DNA from: a virus
IMG/VR virus record: IMGVR_UViG_3300045988_164453
Direction: 5' to 3' (one strand)
DNA length: 59,448 nt
Part shown: piece after piece, positions 56-36,912 of the stretch
Layout: the number at the start of each line of letters is the position of its first letter
Position numbering within the stretch: position 1 is the stretch's first letter
The notes under the pieces: model-generated
Seen by the model: only the letters and a program-made list of their open reading frames with translations
Databases searched by the model: none
What the model was told of the DNA's origin: nothing
Position numbers and translations under genes: made by a program

Positions 56-1187
56 AGCGTTCTTTGCTCGTAGAGAATTAAAAATAATAACCAAAAGGAT
101 GCAAAGGGGCCGTATTAAATCAGTTGAAGAAGGCAAATTTATAGCTTCTACTGCCCCATATGGTTATAAGTTTGAATATGATAAAGAAGGTAAAAAATCA
201 CTTGTAATTGACGAAGAAAAAGCAGCTATTGTAAGAAATATATTTGACATGTATATAAATGGAAATGGTGCTTATAAGATAAAGGTATGGCTAGATAATA
301 TAGGTATTAAAACTAATACAGGTATCCCTTTTTCTCAACAAGCTATAGGGAGGATACTAAGGAATAATATATACTGTGGATATGTTACTTGGAATAATTA
401 CAGAAGAAAAGGTACTATAACTAAAAAGCAGCCAAAAGAAAATATAATTATAGCAAAAGGTATCCATGAACCTATTATATCAGAGGAAATTTGGAACAAA
501 GCTGATGAAATAAGACAAAACAATCAAATAGCTCCTTCTGGAAATAATAAAAATTTAACTAATCCATTAGCCGGTCTTGTAAAATGTGCTTGCTGCGGAC
601 ATACTATGACTAATAAATTATCAAATTATAAAGGCGAAGGATATGTCAAATTTATGTGTTGCAAGTCTTGCAATGAAAATCGTGGAGTAAAAATGTATGT
701 ATTAGAGGAGACTATACTCGAATATTTAGAAGATATATTACAAGAGTTTGAAAATCAAATATTATCCAATAAAGTAGAAAATAAAGAAAATGATAGAATT
801 GAAAATCTAAGATGTACTCTATCTTTATTGAAAAAAAAGGCAGTTGAATTAAATAAGCAAAAGAATAACTTACATGATCTACTAGAAAAAGGTGTATACG
901 ATGTTGATACTTATTTAGAACGTACTCAAGTGCTTTCTAAGAAAACAGATGAAAATAAAAATGCTATTGATAGTACATTGGAACTTATAGAAAGTGAAAA
1001 AAACATTAATATAAATTATAATGAATTAGCTATAAGTATAAAATTAGTACTTGAAAATTATAAAAAAACAGATGATATTAAACTTAAGAATTTTCTTTTG
1101 AAGAGTGTAATTGATGAAATTATTTATTTTAAAGAAAAAAACAAAAGGAACGCTAAGTTTGAATTAGATATAAAATTAAAAATATAA
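1..1187 (+). CDS. Large serine recombinase (integrase), C-terminal ~394 aa; continues from 59066..59393 across the junction (full protein 504 aa)
   Basis: The frame is open from nt 3 (DKTYDLNNELDEEMTEFK) and matches the frame at the window end. It has a recombinase domain, a Cys-rich zinc ribbon (CACCGH...CCKSC) and a long coiled coil. Stop at 1185-1187. Confidence 0.9.
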   Translation, partial: DKTYDLNNELDEEMTEFKAFFARRELKIITKRMQRGRIKSVEEGKFIASTAPYGYKFEYDKEGKKSLVIDEEKAAIVRNIFDMYINGNGAYKIKVWLDNIGIKTNTGIPFSQQAIGRILRNNIYCGYVTWNNYRRKGTITKKQPKENIIIAKGIHEPIISEEIWNKADEIRQNNQIAPSGNNKNLTNPLAGLVKCACCGHTMTNKLSNYKGEGYVKFMCCKSCNENRGVKMYVLEETILEYLEDILQEFENQILSNKVENKENDRIENLRCTLSLLKKKAVELNKQKNNLHDLLEKGVYDVDTYLERTQVLSKKTDENKNAIDSTLELIESEKNININYNELAISIKLVLENYKKTDDIKLKNFLLKSVIDEIIYFKEKNKRNAKFELDIKLKI

Positions 1188-3315: not shown

Positions 3316-4819
3316 TTAAATCCCTCCTGTTGTTACCTTTAATTTTTTTAGTTACTTTCTTTCCAAAACTATTTTTAACTTTTATATATTCTGATTTTAT
3401 ATCTTCAAAATTATCTTTGTTATTATCTATTTCTCTTTTGAAAGCATTAACTAAGTTTTCTTTTTTCTTTAAACATTTTATTATTTTTTCATCAAGTGTA
3501 TAAGTAGCGCATATATCTATTATATGCACATTTTTATTTTGTCCTATTCTATGAACTCTGTCCTCACTTTGTGCTCTTGTTGCATAATCCCAATCATTGC
3601 TATAATAAATTATATAGCTACAAAATTGTAAGTTTAAACCATATCCTGCACATGATTTATTTGCAATTAAGAATTTTGATTCATTTTTGAATTTTTTTAA
3701 ATTTTTTTCCCGTTGTTTTATGTTAAGTTCTCCATAAAATTCAATCGCTGCATCTTTCCCATATTTATTATTAATAAGTGTTGCTATATTTTTTATTTCA
3801 TCGGTATATTTACAAAATATGATAGTTTTTTCTGCTATTGTATCAATTATTTCAATCAATTTTTGTATTCTTGGATTGCTTTCAATATTTCCAAAAAAAT
3901 TGACTTTGTTCATTCCAGTAACTTTTTTTACTTCTATTTTTTTATATTCACATTCATACATATCATATTGTTTTATTGTATCTATTTCATGATAAACATT
4001 GACTTTATAGCCAGATATTACATTTTGAAGTGCTGTAAACATTCTATAGATTGTATGAGGTTCTAATTCGTCAATATCGAACATTAAGTCATTTGCTACT
4101 TTTTCATAATGCTTGTATTGTTCTTTAGTTAAGTTGTAATATTTAGTAGAATATGATTTTTCAGGCAAATCTAAACATTCACTTTTTTTAACTTGATAAG
4201 AATAAGATGATATTTTTTTTGATAAATAATCAACATTCAAGCATCTATTAATCTTATTTGGAATATGTTCATCATATTCTATATGATTTCCTGCAAAACT
4301 CCAAAATGATTTATATCCTAAAACTCTCCAATCAAGAATATACCATTGAGCAAATAAATCAACTTCATTTCTTGATATTGGTGTTCCATTTAATATTAAT
4401 TTGTATTTGCAATATTCTGATAATCTTATAATATTTTTTGTTCTTTTTGCAAAAAAATTTTTAACTAAATTACTCTCGTCAACTATTAAATAACAATTCA
4501 TATCTTTTACTAATTCTAACAGTTCAGAATTCACCCTTATGCTACTTGATAATGTTTCTATGCCACAAATTGTAATTAAATCTTTGCATGTATCCCCTGC
4601 GTGCTTTATAATTTCCCTTTGTAGACTTTCTTTGACAGAGTAAGGACATAACCATAGAACATGATTAATTTTACCTTTTTCTAGTCTTATTTTGATTAAT
4701 TCAAGTGCAGTTCTTGTTTTTCCTGTGCCTTGTTCCATATATAATGCTCCGATTTTTATTTTTCTGAGCTTTTCAACACATTTTTTTTGATGTTCGTATA
4801 AATTTGTAAATAATTCCAA
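3302..4819 (-). CDS. SNF2-family helicase/ATPase
   Basis: 505 aa; motif I EQGTGKT, motif II DESN, motif III LNGTP, motif VI QSEDRVHRIGQ; TTG start after AAGGTG. Confidence 0.85.
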   Translation of the reverse strand: MELFTNLYEHQKKCVEKLRKIKIGALYMEQGTGKTRTALELIKIRLEKGKINHVLWLCPYSVKESLQREIIKHAGDTCKDLITICGIETLSSSIRVNSELLELVKDMNCYLIVDESNLVKNFFAKRTKNIIRLSEYCKYKLILNGTPISRNEVDLFAQWYILDWRVLGYKSFWSFAGNHIEYDEHIPNKINRCLNVDYLSKKISSYSYQVKKSECLDLPEKSYSTKYYNLTKEQYKHYEKVANDLMFDIDELEPHTIYRMFTALQNVISGYKVNVYHEIDTIKQYDMYECEYKKIEVKKVTGMNKVNFFGNIESNPRIQKLIEIIDTIAEKTIIFCKYTDEIKNIATLINNKYGKDAAIEFYGELNIKQREKNLKKFKNESKFLIANKSCAGYGLNLQFCSYIIYYSNDWDYATRAQSEDRVHRIGQNKNVHIIDICATYTLDEKIIKCLKKKENLVNAFKREIDNNKDNFEDIKSEYIKVKNSFGKKVTKKIKGNNRRDLIEGI

Positions 4820-32434: not shown

Positions 32435-32632
32435 TTATTTAATATTTAGAGTAGGAAAAATATTTTTATTTTTAGATATCTTATAAAACTCTTCCGATTC
32501 TTTTCTTACAAATGCTTTTATTATAGTCTTTTCTCCAAATCCCATATTATAATATTGAGATGGCATTATATTTTTATATTTAAACAGATAGTACATTGTT
32601 GCTATTTCACTATCTGTTTCAATTAGTTTTTT
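32435..32632 (-). CDS. -1 frameshift extension of the tail assembly chaperone (63 extra codons, fused product ~195 aa)
   Basis: After the A_AAA_AAC slip the -1 frame reads LIETDSEIATMYYLFKYKNIMPSQYY...PTLNIK and stops at 32435, just before the TMP RBS. Confidence 0.65.
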   Translation of the reverse strand, partial: KKLIETDSEIATMYYLFKYKNIMPSQYYNMGFGEKTIIKAFVRKESEEFYKISKNKNIFPTLNIK

Positions 32633-33021
32633 ATTTCTTCATCTACTTTTTCTATTTTCTTTAAGTCTGATAAATTATTTATTGCATTTACTAAGTCCTC
32701 TACTTCTCCTTTAAGAAGCAATTTATTTATAAGTTCTTTTGGAGTAGCGCAATCAAAATGTTCTCTAAGTGCCTTATCCTTGAATATTGGACAACCTTCC
32801 ATTATAGTTAATACTTTTGTTTTATATACATCTATGTCTGATACGTTTCCATCTTCAATTTTTATAGCTTTCTGTTGTATTTCTGTAGCTTTTTCTGCAT
32901 TTATAGCTTGTATTTCAAATTCTAGTTCTTCACCTATTTTTTTCACATACATTTTATGTATAGCAGTTGGTGTTTCTAATGTCCCTGCGTCTATTTTCAT
33001 TAATTTATCTATTACATTCAT
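32623..33021 (-). CDS. Tail assembly chaperone (XkdN-like, gpG equivalent)
   Basis: 132 aa, located between the tube and TMP genes. Confidence 0.7.
   Translation of the reverse strand: MNVIDKLMKIDAGTLETPTAIHKMYVKKIGEELEFEIQAINAEKATEIQQKAIKIEDGNVSDIDVYKTKVLTIMEGCPIFKDKALREHFDCATPKELINKLLLKGEVEDLVNAINNLSDLKKIEKVDEEIKN
32626..32632 (-). promoter_or_regulatory. Slippery heptamer A_AAA_AAC for programmed -1 frameshifting
   Basis: Minus strand gaaATAAAAAACtaa at the end of the chaperone ORF. Confidence 0.65.
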
Positions 33022-33029
33022 AAATTACC

Positions 33030-33071
33030 TCCTAAAATAAAAATAGGCTTTAGTTAGAAACACCAAAGCCT
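33030..33071 (-). terminator. Hairpin/attenuator after the tail tube gene
   Basis: Minus strand AGGCTTT-N13-AAAGCCT followed by ATTTTTATTTT. Confidence 0.5.
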
Positions 33072-33083
33072 TTATGATATTAT

Positions 33084-33467
33084 TTATATTAAATCTATAA
33101 ATTTATATTTTGTAAAAGTGAATGGGCATTCCACTTCTCCTAATGTTTTAACTTCAAAATCAAATAAAGTTAAATCATCAAAAGATACTCCTGATATACT
33201 TATTCTTTCACTTCCTCCATTACCTGGGTCAGCTAATTTTCCAACTATTGTTACATCCGGTTCTAGGCCATCTTTCATAAAATTAGCTAACAATTTTATC
33301 ATTCTAGAGTTTGTTTTCTTAAGTGTCATAGAGCCAGTTCCACTATATCCTGTTATTTTATGTTGAGTCATCATTTCACCGCAGATATCTATATCTTCTT
33401 TGTCAAATTCTATCTTGGCTTGAAAAGCTGCTATTTCATCAACTAATACATCATTTATCCAAACTTC
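33084..33467 (-). CDS. Tail tube protein (XkdM-like), exon 2
   Basis: Starts EVWINDVLVDEIAAFQAKIEF... The track ORF (start 33488) lacks the family N-terminus and has no RBS. Exon 1 plus exon 2 gives 139 aa. Confidence 0.8.
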   Translation of the reverse strand, partial: EVWINDVLVDEIAAFQAKIEFDKEDIDICGEMMTQHKITGYSGTGSMTLKKTNSRMIKLLANFMKDGLEPDVTIVGKLADPGNGGSERISISGVSFDDLTLFDFEVKTLGEVECPFTFTKYKFIDLI

Positions 33468-34815
33468 CATTTTGTTATCATGTAGCATTTTATTCTACAT
33501 TTCTCATGGTTTCCCATGAGTCCAGACTATGTCTTCACCTTTAACTTAATAGTAAGGTAACGGGTGCTCGTGTCTCTATTATTGGTTATCTTCCGCAAGA
33601 GTTAGTCGTTGCGCCTTCCTAACTACTTTTATGATATTTGTTAGGCTCGGTTCAAAGTTGCCATAAATAAAAAAGAACCCTATAAAAGAGTTCTTAATTC
33701 ATGATATAATATTTCATCTATATTATTAAATTCCCAATATGGTATTCTTATTAATTTTATTTTATGTTGTTTGGCAAATTCACTTTTGATATTGTCCTTC
33801 ATTAAATTAGAAGCAAGTTTATTTTTAGCTTCTTTCCATCTTCCTGGTTTATAATGTAGCTCTCCATCATATTCAATTAAAAATTTTAATTTATTGTCTT
33901 TGTATATAGCAAAATCAAAAGGTAAAGTATATTTATATCTGCATTCTTTATTCCTATATTCTCTTTCGTATTGAATATGATTATTTTCAAGAAATAGTTT
34001 TATAGCATTTTCTCCTTTACTTTCTTTACAATATTTGCATCCTCCATTTCCTAATAATGTTCCTGCATTTTTTTCTGATATTTTACCACATTTAGTATGT
34101 AGACATTTTATCTTTTCTTTATCCCCTTTATATTCAGATAGTAAAATAAATTCATCTCCATACTTTTCTTTAATTTCCTTTTCAAATATTTCATGTGTTT
34201 TTCTTCTTTTGTCTCCATACTCTAAAAATGCACATGCTTTACATTTATGTCCATCTAGTATATGTTGTCCTCTAGCATAAAATTCATTACCACATCCTAA
34301 ACATTTGAATTTCATTTTGTCAGATGCCTTTGTATATTTACTTATTAATTTGCAGTTTGTATTAGAATTTGCTAATTTTTCTAAAAATTCTTTTTCACTC
34401 ATAGCATTCCAATGAGGATTGCATTTATAACATATTGGTCTTTTAAAAAAGCTATTAAATGTTACTGTTTTTATATGCCCTTCAGAACATTTTATTGTAA
34501 TTTTAGCATTTAACTTTGGATCATCTGCGTTTAGTAATTCAAATCCATTACTTTCTACTATTTCTTTTATTTTATCAAAAGTGTATTTCTTCATAAAAAT
34601 AAAACCTCCGATAGTTTTTTATTTCCGAATACTTATAAATAGGAAGGGGACTTCGGATAATCCCTTTTCGTTAAGACTCGCGACTTTCCTAACTATCCTA
34701 TACTTATATTATATCATAAATATAGTTATTATTCTTAGGTTTTCTTTGAATTCTCCCGTTTTTTAACTAAATATTTCTACTTAGTGGGGCAAAGTTGGAT
34801 AGAAGTAATACACTT
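33468..34815 (-). mobile_element. Group I intron (1348 nt) in the tail tube gene, carrying a nuclease ORF
   Basis: 5' splice site after U of ACUUGGGGU, pairing with the internal guide GCCCCA(CU)AAGU via a U.G wobble. The last intron nt is G (..AAAAUG|GAA). GC-richer structured flanks include CTCATGG-GAAA-CCATGAG. Confidence 0.8.
33680..34594 (-). CDS. Intron-encoded putative homing endonuclease: three zinc-ribbon modules plus a C-terminal Vsr/DUF559-like PD-(D/E)xK domain
   Basis: 304 aa; KCSEGH..CYKC, KCLGCG..CKAC, KCLHTKCG..CKYC; LPFDFAIY...LIEYDGELHY; own GGAGG RBS. Confidence 0.65.
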   Translation of the reverse strand: MKKYTFDKIKEIVESNGFELLNADDPKLNAKITIKCSEGHIKTVTFNSFFKRPICYKCNPHWNAMSEKEFLEKLANSNTNCKLISKYTKASDKMKFKCLGCGNEFYARGQHILDGHKCKACAFLEYGDKRRKTHEIFEKEIKEKYGDEFILLSEYKGDKEKIKCLHTKCGKISEKNAGTLLGNGGCKYCKESKGENAIKLFLENNHIQYEREYRNKECRYKYTLPFDFAIYKDNKLKFLIEYDGELHYKPGRWKEAKNKLASNLMKDNIKSEFAKQHKIKLIRIPYWEFNNIDEILYHELRTLL

Positions 34816-34851
34816 ACCCCAAGTACCATTTATTACTTCGTTAGCTTTCAA
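34816..34851 (-). CDS. Tail tube protein, exon 1 (12 codons, TTG start)
   Basis: AGGAGGTG-N7-TTG AAA GCT AAC GAA GTA ATA AAT GGT ACT TGG GGT, translating as (M)KANEVINGTWG. Confidence 0.75.
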
Positions 34852-34914
34852 TTAAAAACACCTCCTATATAAAATAAAAAAGAACTTAATAAAAATTAAG
34901 TCCTTAAAAATTGT

Positions 34915-35739
34915 TTATAAATCATATATTCCATCTTCAAGTCTTTTTATTGCAGTTTTTATTGTTTTAAAATCTACTTTCATTCTATTAGCTTCTCTAT
35001 TGATAGATGAACCATTTTTTATATTGTTAACTATTTCTATAGCCTCTTCTTTGCTGATTTTCCATTCATCTTTTCTTTTTCTTTGTGCAAAAGATCTTCT
35101 CTCTGTATTTGTAGCATAGAATAGTGGATCGGTTTTAGATTTTTCATAGATTTCTTCTATTGTTATTTTATCTCTATATAACATATTAGTAAGTCTTCTA
35201 ATAGAAATACCTAAATATTCTGCTATATTTTTAGTGCCTTTAATTCCGTGAAATTGTAATATATCTCTTTTATTATTGGCTTGAGTATATATATCTACCC
35301 ATCTACAATTAGAAGGTTCGTAATCACCATCATTATCTATCCTATCTATACTTAAATTATCTGTATATCCATTTTCTAATGACCATTTATACATATGTTG
35401 TATAGAATTAAATTTAAATTTAATTCCTCTTGCTCCATAATCTTTATATGAAGTATTTTTAGGATTTTCGCATCTAGCTTTTGCACCTTTACATATTCCA
35501 TAAAGTCTTCTGTTTTTAGCCCACATTCCATGTTTTGTAACTAATTGTTGTTGTGATTTTTTTGCACATTCATCACAATAAGGACCGCCATTTTTAGATG
35601 TTTTAACACTTGATGTAAGACTTGATTTGGTTCTATATACTATGTTTCCACAATCGCATTTACATTTATAAACAACATAAGAATTTTTTCTTTTGTCAGT
35701 CGATTCTATAATTGTTAAGTGCCCGTATCTTTCTTCCAT
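34915..35739 (-). CDS. Free-standing HNH-type endonuclease between the sheath and tube genes
   Basis: 274 aa; CKCDCGN..CDEC zinc motif; LSIDRIDNDGDYEPSNCRWVDIYTQANN; C-terminal HTH-like region. Confidence 0.7.
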   Translation of the reverse strand: MEERYGHLTIIESTDKRKNSYVVYKCKCDCGNIVYRTKSSLTSSVKTSKNGGPYCDECAKKSQQQLVTKHGMWAKNRRLYGICKGAKARCENPKNTSYKDYGARGIKFKFNSIQHMYKWSLENGYTDNLSIDRIDNDGDYEPSNCRWVDIYTQANNKRDILQFHGIKGTKNIAEYLGISIRRLTNMLYRDKITIEEIYEKSKTDPLFYATNTERRSFAQRKRKDEWKISKEEAIEIVNNIKNGSSINREANRMKVDFKTIKTAIKRLEDGIYDL

Positions 35740-35826: not shown

Positions 35827-36912
35827 TCATATAAAACATCTGATGCTAATACTTTCGATCGCATCAAGAATTTTACATTCTACTGCTATAAACACTTGAT
35901 CTCCTGTATTTGCTTCTCTTATCTGTTGATCGCTCATAGTAGAGATACTAACTCCATTTGATTTTAAGTATTTCTTTTGTTCTTCCATATCTATATCAAC
36001 TGTTACTGTATTTTTTTCAACTAGTCCATCATTAATCAATCCATCAAAATAACCATGGATAGCTGTAATTAGTAATACTTTATTATCATAACTGTTACTT
36101 AATTTCCCAATATATGCATCTCTTGCAGTTTTTCTTATATCATTTGCTATTAAGTCCATTATGTCAACAGTCTTAATTTTTTGAAATAAATCACCTTTAC
36201 TTTGTATATCTGTTACAGTTGTATCAGATACAGTAGTTAAGCTGTTTACTCCTCTTGCCACTTTTATTCTTCCTGATTCTTTATAAAGAATAAATTCGCC
36301 TTTCCCTACTTTTTCAGTTGTTTCAGTTCTTGATTCATAAGGTATCAAATCAACTTCTGGTACAGAAGTATAAGTGGTTGACATTCTTAAATCTGTTCCA
36401 GCTATTAATCCTGCAACTCTTGCAGTAAATTCAGCAGCAGTATAAGTTTTTTCTCCTACAACTACTCCACTTTGAGTTACATTTATTATTCCTTCATAAT
36501 CAGCTGTTTCATTAGCTAATACTGCCTTAACCATATTTCCTAAATTTCTTTGCGATTTAACCCATGTTACTATTGCTGTTTTATCTTCATCTACAGCTGA
36601 TGGGTAGCATAAATAGTCAAATTGTGTATTTTCAAAATAACTTAAAGCATCTTGTAAAGTTAATTCTCCACTTATAATGTATAGTTCTAATCTTAGTGGT
36701 GCACTTGTATTTCCTATTAAAGCATTCGTTATAAGTTGCTTATTATTATCTGTAACATCACTAGGTATATCAGTTACATCAACTATAGTTGCAGGAGATA
36801 TAGCTTTTTCTTCCTTTATTATCATTGCAACTATACCTCTGGATCCTCTGCTTATAGCAGTAATACCTTCTTGTATAAATTTAATACTTATACTTGGTAA
36901 TCCTAAAGCCAT
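35827..36912 (-). CDS. Tail sheath protein (XkdK-like)
   Basis: 361 aa; position upstream of the tube gene; FTARVAGLIAGT, ILYKESGRIKVARGVNS. Confidence 0.8.
   Translation of the reverse strand: MALGLPSISIKFIQEGITAISRGSRGIVAMIIKEEKAISPATIVDVTDIPSDVTDNNKQLITNALIGNTSAPLRLELYIISGELTLQDALSYFENTQFDYLCYPSAVDEDKTAIVTWVKSQRNLGNMVKAVLANETADYEGIINVTQSGVVVGEKTYTAAEFTARVAGLIAGTDLRMSTTYTSVPEVDLIPYESRTETTEKVGKGEFILYKESGRIKVARGVNSLTTVSDTTVTDIQSKGDLFQKIKTVDIMDLIANDIRKTARDAYIGKLSNSYDNKVLLITAIHGYFDGLINDGLVEKNTVTVDIDMEEQKKYLKSNGVSISTMSDQQIREANTGDQVFIAVECKILDAIESISIRCFI

Follow-up and report, generated by a model that had tools for sequence, protein, structure and literature searches.

The virus record IMGVR_UViG_3300045988_164453 (IMG/VR), a stretch of 59,448 nucleotides (nt) that was analyzed whole and is called the window here, most likely carries a mobile group I intron in the tail-tube gene of a common human-gut phage of ~59 kb. 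The element (33468..34815, minus strand) would interrupt the gene after codon 12, splice out of the transcript and spread by homing with the help of the protein encoded by its internal open reading frame (ORF). We put the probability of this reading, with splicing and homing taken together, at about 0.9. A group I intron had been proposed at this place in a preliminary description made from the DNA letters alone, and this identification is supported by the Rfam model, the ribozyme anatomy, and covariation among relatives.

Insertion site and tail-tube gene

In the ORF list, the tube gene appears as a 134-amino-acid (aa) ORF (33488..33084) that starts with an ATG, has no Shine-Dalgarno sequence upstream, and matches the Pfam family DUF2001 from profile position 15 only (15-139, 137 bits). 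The preliminary description had regarded this Met as lacking a ribosome-binding site (RBS) and the N terminus as missing, and had placed the 12 missing codons upstream of an insert. Both observations hold: AGGAGGTG-N7-TTG and the codons for KANEVINGTWG end at 34816, the 1348-nt insert follows, and its last base, G33468, stands right before GAA GTT TGG, as had been described. When the exons are joined, the predicted 139-aa product matches XkdM/DUF2001 (PF09393) over positions 3-139 of 139 with 156.8 bits, a gain of 12 profile positions and ~20 bits, so that the earlier statement of colinearity with XkdM-type tube proteins stands for this predicted product. It also matches PHROG 365, "tail protein," over its full length (2.3e-48), and in full-length comparisons, XkdM-like proteins from Clostridium and Clostridioides phages are 38-48% identical to it. 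Read-through from exon 1 halts at an in-frame TAG (34779..34777), 13 codons into the intron.

Thus, the tube gene model needs to be corrected to the spliced join 34851..34816 plus 33467..33084. In every assembly inspected, gene callers give the shortened 134-aa ORF, which lacks an RBS and exon 1; the five places shown (L120-L124) are in gut metagenome assemblies. For the corrected gene, the predicted junction in the spliced mRNA of the window allele is AATGGTACTTGGGGT|GAAGTTTGGATAAATG, and an intron-less version of the window's site is predicted to read ...ACTTGGGGT|GAAGTTTGG... (GGGGT|GAAG). The predicted N-terminal peptide of the tube protein is KANEVINGTWGEVWINDVLVDEIAAFQAK, beginning KANEVINGTWGEVW..., and the peptide across the junction is ANEVINGTWGEVWINDVLVDEIAAFQAK.

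When IMG/VR was scanned with the spliced protein, matches were obtained at 61 loci (given L numbers, as are the other loci cited here). The tube gene is uninterrupted in 11 close gut-virome relatives (L001-L010 and L054; ~96% aa identity). Exactly over the predicted junction, six of them (L001-L005 and L009) read ...ACTTGGGCT|GAAGTTTGG..., and the other five (L006-L008, L010, and L054) read ...ACTTT(T/C)GCT|GAAG.... At the identical site, seven relatives carry the insert, with a length of 1348/1349 nt in L012-L017 and 374 nt in L011. At a greater distance (45-58% identity), every homolog is uninterrupted and keeps the motif ..INGT[HFY]G|[TE]V.. across the junction, and all annotated-phage (55/55) and plasmid-borne (53/53) tube homologs match as one unbroken piece. 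Since the junction falls within the conserved INGTxG|xV, exon 1 provides part of the motif and the insert sits inside it. The exon junction is thus confirmed by natural intron-less alleles and by the conserved motif.

The intron itself was found in several allelic states. In L011 (804-1177), the ORF is reduced to scraps while the ribozyme is kept, giving an ORF-deleted allele of 374 nt; in L012 (2679-4027), a 1-nt insertion frameshifts the intron ORF after about residue 181. The sheath proteins are 97.5-99.7% identical among phages in which the intron is absent, intact, frameshifted (L012), or ORF deleted (L011). Exon bases within ~50 nt of the site track the intron, with AACGAAG/GGGGT in intron-plus and AACAAAG/GGGCT in intron-minus alleles. 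Together, the linked exon changes and the allele states form the pattern expected from homing, co-conversion, and later decay, which is indirect evidence for these events. A single natural phage population would then display the whole homing cycle, from the empty site through the intact intron and the frameshifted ORF to the ORF-deleted intron.

The last exon-1 codon differs between allele groups. It encodes Gly (of INGTxG) in the intron-plus alleles and in all distant homologs, with GGT as the family-wide codon, whereas the close intron-less relatives (L001-L010 and L054; ~4030-4036 there, 34818-34816 in the window) end exon 1 in GCT (Ala). Some of the intron-less relatives also have TTT or TTC in place of TGG at the end of exon 1. 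An exact 18-mer scan of viral contigs returned only L011, because the other copies differ by one base. A scan of a genome collection pointed to no host; the best match had 54% identity and lay in the metagenome-assembled genome (MAG) of an uncultured Clostridium; the closest matches were gut Clostridia MAGs at 54% or less.

Ribozyme anatomy and covariation

A permissive Rfam scan of the region placed Intron_gpI at 33740..33503, the 3' half in the window, with 42.5 bits (E 4.8e-9). The ORF-deleted allele L011 matched the same family (RF00028) over the full model with 80.7 bits (E 5.8e-21), and the P1 of the model was placed on the exon-1/intron boundary. The positions of the individual elements are collected in the table below.

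At the 5' end, the P1 helix with its U.G wobble at the splice site, in which the U is the last base of exon 1, and the GCCCCA near the start of the insert (beginning at insert position 26) agree with the preliminary description. Its extension of P1 through A(CU)AAGU does not hold up; these bases more likely form the P2 5' strand (ACUAAGU/AUUUAGU), and P1 instead continues into the intron (AAG/UUU). The internal guide CAACUUUGCCCCA can pair in 13/13 positions with the ligated exons UGGGGU|GAAGUUG (P1 plus P10), a match reached by 35/20,000 shuffles of the first 60 intron bases. P3 (ACGGGAG/CACCCGU) spans 1.19 kb and P4 (UCAAAG/CUUUGA) spans 1.09 kb. Of the 41 AAUU sites within 3 kb upstream of P4', none partners as well as the P3-J3/4-P4 segment, which scores 12/13 (next best, 9/13). 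The GAAA-capped stem noted previously is P9. The flanks of the ORF had been called GC richer, which fits the 3' flank (36.8%, compared with 24.8% in the ORF and 28.4% in the whole window) and not clearly the 5' flank (29.9%).

The helix between P7 and P3' covaries (CUCU/AGAG here; UGAG/CUCA, UAGA/UCUA, and others in relatives), its loop is conserved, and it may correspond to one of the extra helices P7.1/P7.2 of subgroup IA, the phage-type group I introns. Upstream of the ORF, the leader (34595..34743) is mostly deleted in L011 and is thus dispensable for the Rfam core. In the minimum-energy fold of 34590-34743 (minus strand), the AAAACCU that closely follows the P4 5' strand is paired to AGGUUUU, a stretch overlapping the RBS of the ORF; 11/200 shuffles folded as well (z -2.0), which is not significant. 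Such a pairing would hide the RBS in the folded intron. A second or duplicated ribozyme core at 34700..34620, where UAGUUAGGAA resembles the P6a 3' strand, was also considered and dropped, as the repeat is too short, the fold is the same nonsignificant one (z -2.0), and the region is missing from L011.

For covariation analysis, the gapped core pattern CAACGACUA...AAGACAUAGUC retrieved 33 further introns from viral contigs. Eight of these (L085, L091, L097-L099, and L101-L103) share the P7.1-like insert, P9, P9.1, and the GAUAAC...G tail of the window, and four of these ribozyme-subfamily relatives exceed the Rfam gathering score as compact introns. From a 10-sequence alignment, RNAalifold independently predicted P6a, P7, P7.1, P8, P9, and P9.1, with compensatory double changes in 29/34 pairs. 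Pair counting gave 89.2% standard pairs, compared with 63.7% in shuffles and 29-44% when the partners were slid, and the covariation score was 0.716 versus 0.239, with 0/500 shuffles as high. P7 is invariant, partly by construction, as it was part of the search pattern. P4 covaries among the relatives (UCAAAG/CUUUGA, UGCAAG/CUUGCA, UACAAG/CUUGUA, UCAGCG/CGCUGA, and UGUAAA/UUUGCA). P3 and P4 were scored directly because a MAFFT alignment of the full-length compact relatives misplaced the 5' half of L011; in this scoring, fixed P3' registers rated several relatives too low, and the best candidate in L102 was spurious.

Two separate group I introns lie within ~2 kb of each other in L091 (1762-2025 and 3669-3932) and in L102 (8914-9170 and 9510-9721). 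L098 (3693-9744), filed as viral, combines within 6 kb a fragment matching large-subunit rRNA, a group I intron, and eleven genes for tRNAs, and may be organellar or cellular rather than viral.

Table. Positions of the tube exons, the predicted intron and ribozyme elements, and the intron ORF in the window
Feature	Position	Strand	Remarks
Shine-Dalgarno sequence AGGAGGTG of tail-tube gene	34859..34866	(-)	From the sequence; kept in every relative, intron-plus or intron-minus
Tube exon 1: TTG start (34851..34849) and 11 codons KANEVINGTWG	34816..34851	(-)	TTG 7 nt after AGGAGGTG
Group I intron (predicted), 1348 nt, begins AAGUG, ends ...AAAAUG	33468..34815	(-)	Absent in L001-L010 and L054; present in L011-L017; Rfam Intron_gpI
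P1 hairpin, UGGGGU|AAG (34821..34813) with UUUGCCCCA (34793..34785)	34785..34821	(-)	U34816.G34790 wobble
Internal guide CAACUUUGCCCCA	34797..34785	(-)	5' part AACUUU forms P10 with exon 2 GAAGUU
P2 hairpin, ACUAAGU/AUUUAGU	34766..34785	(-)	Holds the in-frame stop TAG
P3 5' strand ACGGGAG (34759..34753) and P4 5' strand UCAAAG (34749..34744)	34744..34759	(-)	J3/4 AAU between them
P5 5' side and structured peripheral ORF leader	34595..34743	(-)	Includes ORF Shine-Dalgarno GGAGG (34609..34605)
Intron ORF, 304 aa	33680..34594	(-)	Own GGAGG 10 nt upstream; in P5 loop
Zinc-ribbon/treble-clef units of the ORF (predicted)	Residues ~20-60, 80-125, 150-190		
Vsr-like nuclease domain of the ORF (predicted)	Residues ~190-304		
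Ribozyme 3' half	33468..33679	(-)	Includes P5' and P4' (CUUUGA, 33657..33652)
P6/P6a	33650..33614	(-)	Within ribozyme 3' half
P7 (GACUA/UAGUC)	33607..33603 with 33529..33525	(-)	
P7.1-like helix (CUCU/AGAG)	33601..33598 with 33577..33574	(-)	
P3'	33566..33560	(-)	
P8	About 33559..33536	(-)	
P9, CUCAUGG-GAAA-CCAUGAG	33520..33503	(-)	GAAA loop
P9.1	33499..33481	(-)	
Terminal G	33468	(-)	Directly before GAAGUU
Tube exon 2 (EVWINDVLV... to stop codon), 127 codons and stop	33084..33467	(-)	Opens GAA GTT TGG

The predicted intron-encoded nuclease

The intron ORF itself has no Pfam or NCBIfam match. Over residues 3-302, it matches PHROG 559 with E 2.7e-56 (192.6 bits), and more weakly it also matches PHROGs labeled "homing endonuclease" and "intron encoded nuclease." PHROG 559 is labeled "HNH endonuclease"; no HNH domain was found in the ORF or its homologs by Pfam or NCBIfam. 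Likewise, neither the ORF nor its homologs match a catalytic-domain profile of a homing-endonuclease family in these two collections, consistent with the earlier view that the protein stands outside the four classical families. Homologs number 1,678 in the database at E <= 1e-5. Matches occur in 464 phage records, mostly of phages of Staphylococcus, Enterococcus, Streptococcus, Bacillus, and Lactococcus, and homologs are also found free-standing (e.g., between terS and terL in Streptococcus phage P7151) and in bacterial chromosomes.

In an alignment of 30 homologs, three H/C-x2-C...C-x2-C units are followed by an invariant C-terminal pattern (SKGE, PFDF, IEYDGxxH, DxIK, and LIRIPY). No substitution occurs at E195, D227, D243, or H247, and D267 reaches at least 90% conservation; this order is compatible with E-D-x-H-D, and these residues may be equivalent to the catalytic ones of I-Bth0305I. 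Among these homologs, DUF4379 treble-clef fingers were matched in 22/30, CapR in 20/30, and DUF2726 in 19/30, and a Vsr or DUF559 Pfam match in 0/30. AlphaFold (AF2) modeled the protein with a predicted local distance difference test score (pLDDT) of 91 over the full length and 96 over residues 190-304, and in the model, the N-terminal part is built from a beta-hairpin module repeated three times. In Foldseek, the zinc-ribbon domains diluted the search with the full-length model, so that the isolated C-terminal domain was needed. Its top PDB match was the catalytic domain of I-Bth0305I (3r3p_B; probability 0.99, TM scores 0.52/0.59, E 0.018). Escherichia coli Vsr (1cw0_A) aligned with probability 0.99, TMq 0.74, a root mean square deviation of 2.7 A, and E 0.12, and the other top matches were restriction-endonuclease-fold proteins (R2 endonuclease, BstEII, and TnsA). 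The preliminary description had assigned three zinc ribbons and a Vsr/DUF559-like nuclease. The units and the fold agree with that, while the sequence family is another one: judged by the predicted structure, the nuclease is related to Vsr/DUF559 by fold only, and by sequence it is DUF2726-like/PHROG 559.

A comparison of the ORF in the window and in L014 gives 46 differing sites, a dS of 0.21, and a dN/dS of 0.10; by this ratio, the ORF is under purifying selection. The 433 non-ORF intron nucleotides differ at 2 positions, so that the ribozyme is ~40x less diverged than the synonymous sites of the ORF. Either the protein and the ribozyme are both constrained, or the ribozyme has recently been homogenized.

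The neighboring genes follow each other on the minus strand in the order sheath (36912..35827), a 274-aa ORF (35739..34915), the split tube gene, an XkdN-like tail chaperone (33021..32623), and the tape measure. The 274-aa ORF (34915-35739), between sheath and tube and ~60 nt upstream of the tube start, is a free-standing HNH-type endonuclease gene (phrog_374, E 3.6e-46; no Pfam match). Among the near-identical phages, it is full length in the window, L005-L008, L010, and L014, a 34-codon remnant in L001-L003, L009, L011, L013, L016, and L017, and absent in L004, L012, and L015, and its state does not follow that of the intron. An intrinsic-terminator-like hairpin (33045-33071, minus strand), the second besides one inside the intron, comes immediately behind the tube gene; the scan found 3 such sites in 3 kb versus 0.4 expected.

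Proposed mechanism, rival explanations, and known systems

From the anatomy, we infer the following splicing steps, to which a homing step is added by inference. In the late transcript, pairing between the guide CAACUUUGCCCCA and the last bases of exon 1 would create P1, including the U34816.G34790 wobble, and an external guanosine bound in P7 would attack the 5' splice site. The guide would then hold exon 2 (P10), the terminal G33468 would be exchanged, and ligation of ...ACUUGGGGU to GAAGUUUGG... would give the mRNA for the full 139-aa XkdM-type tube protein. In unspliced RNA, translation from the real start would end 13 codons into the intron, and the downstream ORF would have no RBS and lack part of INGTxG. 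The 304-codon ORF in the P5 loop is predicted to encode three zinc-ribbon DNA-binding units and a Vsr-like nuclease (putative functions). During coinfection, this protein is likely to cleave tube alleles that lack the intron, close to the insertion site, after which repair would copy the intron and nearby exon bases into them.

Several results weigh against this scheme. The default Rfam scan of the whole window returned nothing at the gathering score, and the 42.5 bits of the window copy are below the 50-bit gathering cutoff of RF00028. The copy scores low because ~1.07 kb, including the 304-codon ORF, sits in the P5 loop. In the Intron_gpI check that the preliminary description had proposed, the cutoff is exceeded by the ORF-deleted allele of this intron in L011 (80.7 bits). 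P5 is weakly defined, the Rfam alignment giving just CC/GG plus mismatches. A terminator-like hairpin covers the stop codon of the ORF (33673-33695, minus strand), inside the intron and upstream of the ribozyme 3' half. At the -2 base, the exon of the close intron-less relatives departs from that of the intron-plus alleles, so that these relatives may or may not still be cleavable targets. For the nuclease domain, the Foldseek E-values are weak (0.018 or higher), and PDB sequence searches with the ORF alone or with a 30-sequence profile gave zinc-ribbon matches only, with no nuclease and no link to Vsr or 3r3p.

The low Rfam score also fits a different explanation, in which the insert is a dead relic or plain insertion that is not spliced, a 134-aa or 127-aa tube protein is made from an internal start, and exon 1 is a leftover. 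The 134-aa ATG ORF does exist and is picked by gene callers in every assembly seen, and the ORF has decayed in L011 and L012. However, the internal ATG lacks an RBS, and its product misses the conserved profile positions 3-14, while the RBS, start, and reading frame of exon 1 are preserved in 8/8 intron-plus copies. The core helices and the guide are intact as well, in a ribozyme with the ~40x lower divergence mentioned above, and we regard a dead insert as very unlikely. The chance that the split is an assembly or chimera artefact is negligible in our view: the window is a metagenome-type contig, but a 1348-nt insert at this site recurs in independent assemblies from different projects and samples, and 756 indexed blocks of public assemblies, mostly from the human gut, contain the exact intron ORF, on contigs up to 50-200 kb.

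The intron might also splice while its ORF serves another purpose or none: the product could help in splicing like a maturase, act on a different target as a defense or competition nuclease, or be an inactive passenger. Consistent with this, the protein has no sequence-level match to any characterized homing endonuclease, homologs exist free-standing (terS/terL of phage P7151) and in bacterial chromosomes, and the -2 base is changed in the close intron-less relatives. On the other hand, the predicted Vsr-like fold with invariant acidic and His residues and the dN/dS of 0.10 speak against these alternatives. In addition, PHROG 559 members are known from further phage group I introns, and in related ribozymes the P5 position is occupied by an HNH gene, which is the usual endonuclease-cargo pattern. 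The intron is also present or absent together with changes in the flanking exons, the trace expected after homing. A role other than homing thus seems unlikely, and a homing intron is preferred.

With the homing intron as the preferred reading, a more tentative extension can be offered, which we find possible but rather doubtful. The protein, with its three zinc ribbons and Vsr-like domain, may act as a homing endonuclease; to our knowledge, no homing endonuclease of this architecture has been biochemically characterized, and its DNA-binding part is unlike that of I-Bth0305I. The intron-less GCT alleles might then be immune, as the change from GGT to GCT, with C at the -2 position, would break a P1 pair and may also affect endonuclease recognition and block cleavage. 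If so, these alleles would have been selected against the endonuclease, and the tube locus of an abundant gut phage would record an ongoing contest, with a second, free-standing HNH gene being gained and lost 100 nt upstream. The practical value of the locus lies mainly in the corrected gene model and in a good test case for the PHROG 559 nucleases, for which it offers a clean candidate target site; these nucleases are widespread and biochemically uncharacterized.

Endonuclease-carrying group I introns are classic in Firmicutes phages. For tail-tube genes, group I introns are known from the prophages of Bacillus weihenstephanensis KBAB4 as well as B. cereus B4264 (PMC2504315), and orf142 of Staphylococcus phage Twort, an intron host, was later identified as a tail-tube gene (PMC11878797). 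Group I introns have thus been reported in tail-tube and other virion genes (PMC2504315 and PMC11878797), and they are not so rare there as to be surprising, contrary to the earlier remark on essential virion genes of clostridial-type phages. As predicted for the window, the B. cereus-group and Twort introns are of the self-splicing type, lie in frame in the major tail-tube gene of a Firmicutes phage, and have early stops in P1/P2, whereas their cargo is another one or is missing. A search for homologs of the DUF2001 protein gave no Bacillus match in a plasmid collection in which pBWB401 should be included. Since the B. cereus-group and Twort tube genes were not detected as DUF2001 homologs, the insertion sites are not comparable.

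For the nuclease, a close known system is I-Bth0305I, encoded by the recA group I intron of Bacillus phage 0305phi8-36. It is an EDxHD/Vsr-like homing endonuclease with the catalytic residues D196/N208/H213/D222, and since then Vsr-like homing endonucleases have been recognized as a family (PMC3239194). Both elements are phage group I introns with an ORF interrupting P5, and 3r3p is the top fold match of the window domain. Unlike I-Bth0305I, which has a NUMOD/HTH N terminus, the window protein has three zinc-ribbon units in its N-terminal 190 residues; there is no detectable sequence similarity, and the host gene is the tail tube rather than recA. In 2025, group I introns in the terminase large-subunit genes of Bastillevirinae were reported to encode PHROG 559 nucleases, which carry a VSR-endonuclease signature and were placed in the VSR superfamily (PMC11878797). 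These introns share with the window the PHROG, the ORF in intron loops, and the misleading name "HNH endonuclease," and they differ in host gene (terL), in phage group (Bacillus Herelleviridae), and in ribozyme context; splicing was tested for some of them, and there are phage introns that splice in cells only (PMC11878797).

A megablast of the region against annotated phages gave no match. The closest ribozyme in annotated phages is in Clostridium perfringens phages, at 72.5% over 165 nt of the 3' core. In phiCP13O (L119, NC_019506.1), a 1,067-nt gap between two tape-measure coding sequences (1597-2663) has its ribozyme core ending at the start of the second one, and the same ribozyme occurs in the tape-measure genes of phiCP34O, CPQ4, and vB_CpeS-17DYC. 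This gap appears to be an unannotated group I intron. As in the window, a virion gene of a clostridial phage would be interrupted; the gene is a different one, and the records list two coding sequences and no intron.

Members of the window's ribozyme subfamily also occur in the IMG/VR contigs L097 and L103, with the same core, P7.1-like helix, P9, P9.1, and GAUAAC...G tail. Their ORF likewise sits in P5, and in L097 the two P4 strands are 811 nt apart. Unlike in the window, the ORFs in L097 (9528-10337) and L103 (12792-13559) are of the HNH type (269 and 255 aa), and another gene is interrupted (363/383-aa ORF upstream). Compared with the window, this pair shows an exchange of endonuclease cargo within one ribozyme lineage. 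Given the tail-tube precedents in B. cereus prophages and Twort, the intron in the window adds one ordinary, new member to a kind of mobile element already known, and the current understanding of introns and homing is unchanged. With it, the DUF2001/XkdM-type tube gene would join the virion genes invaded by group I introns.

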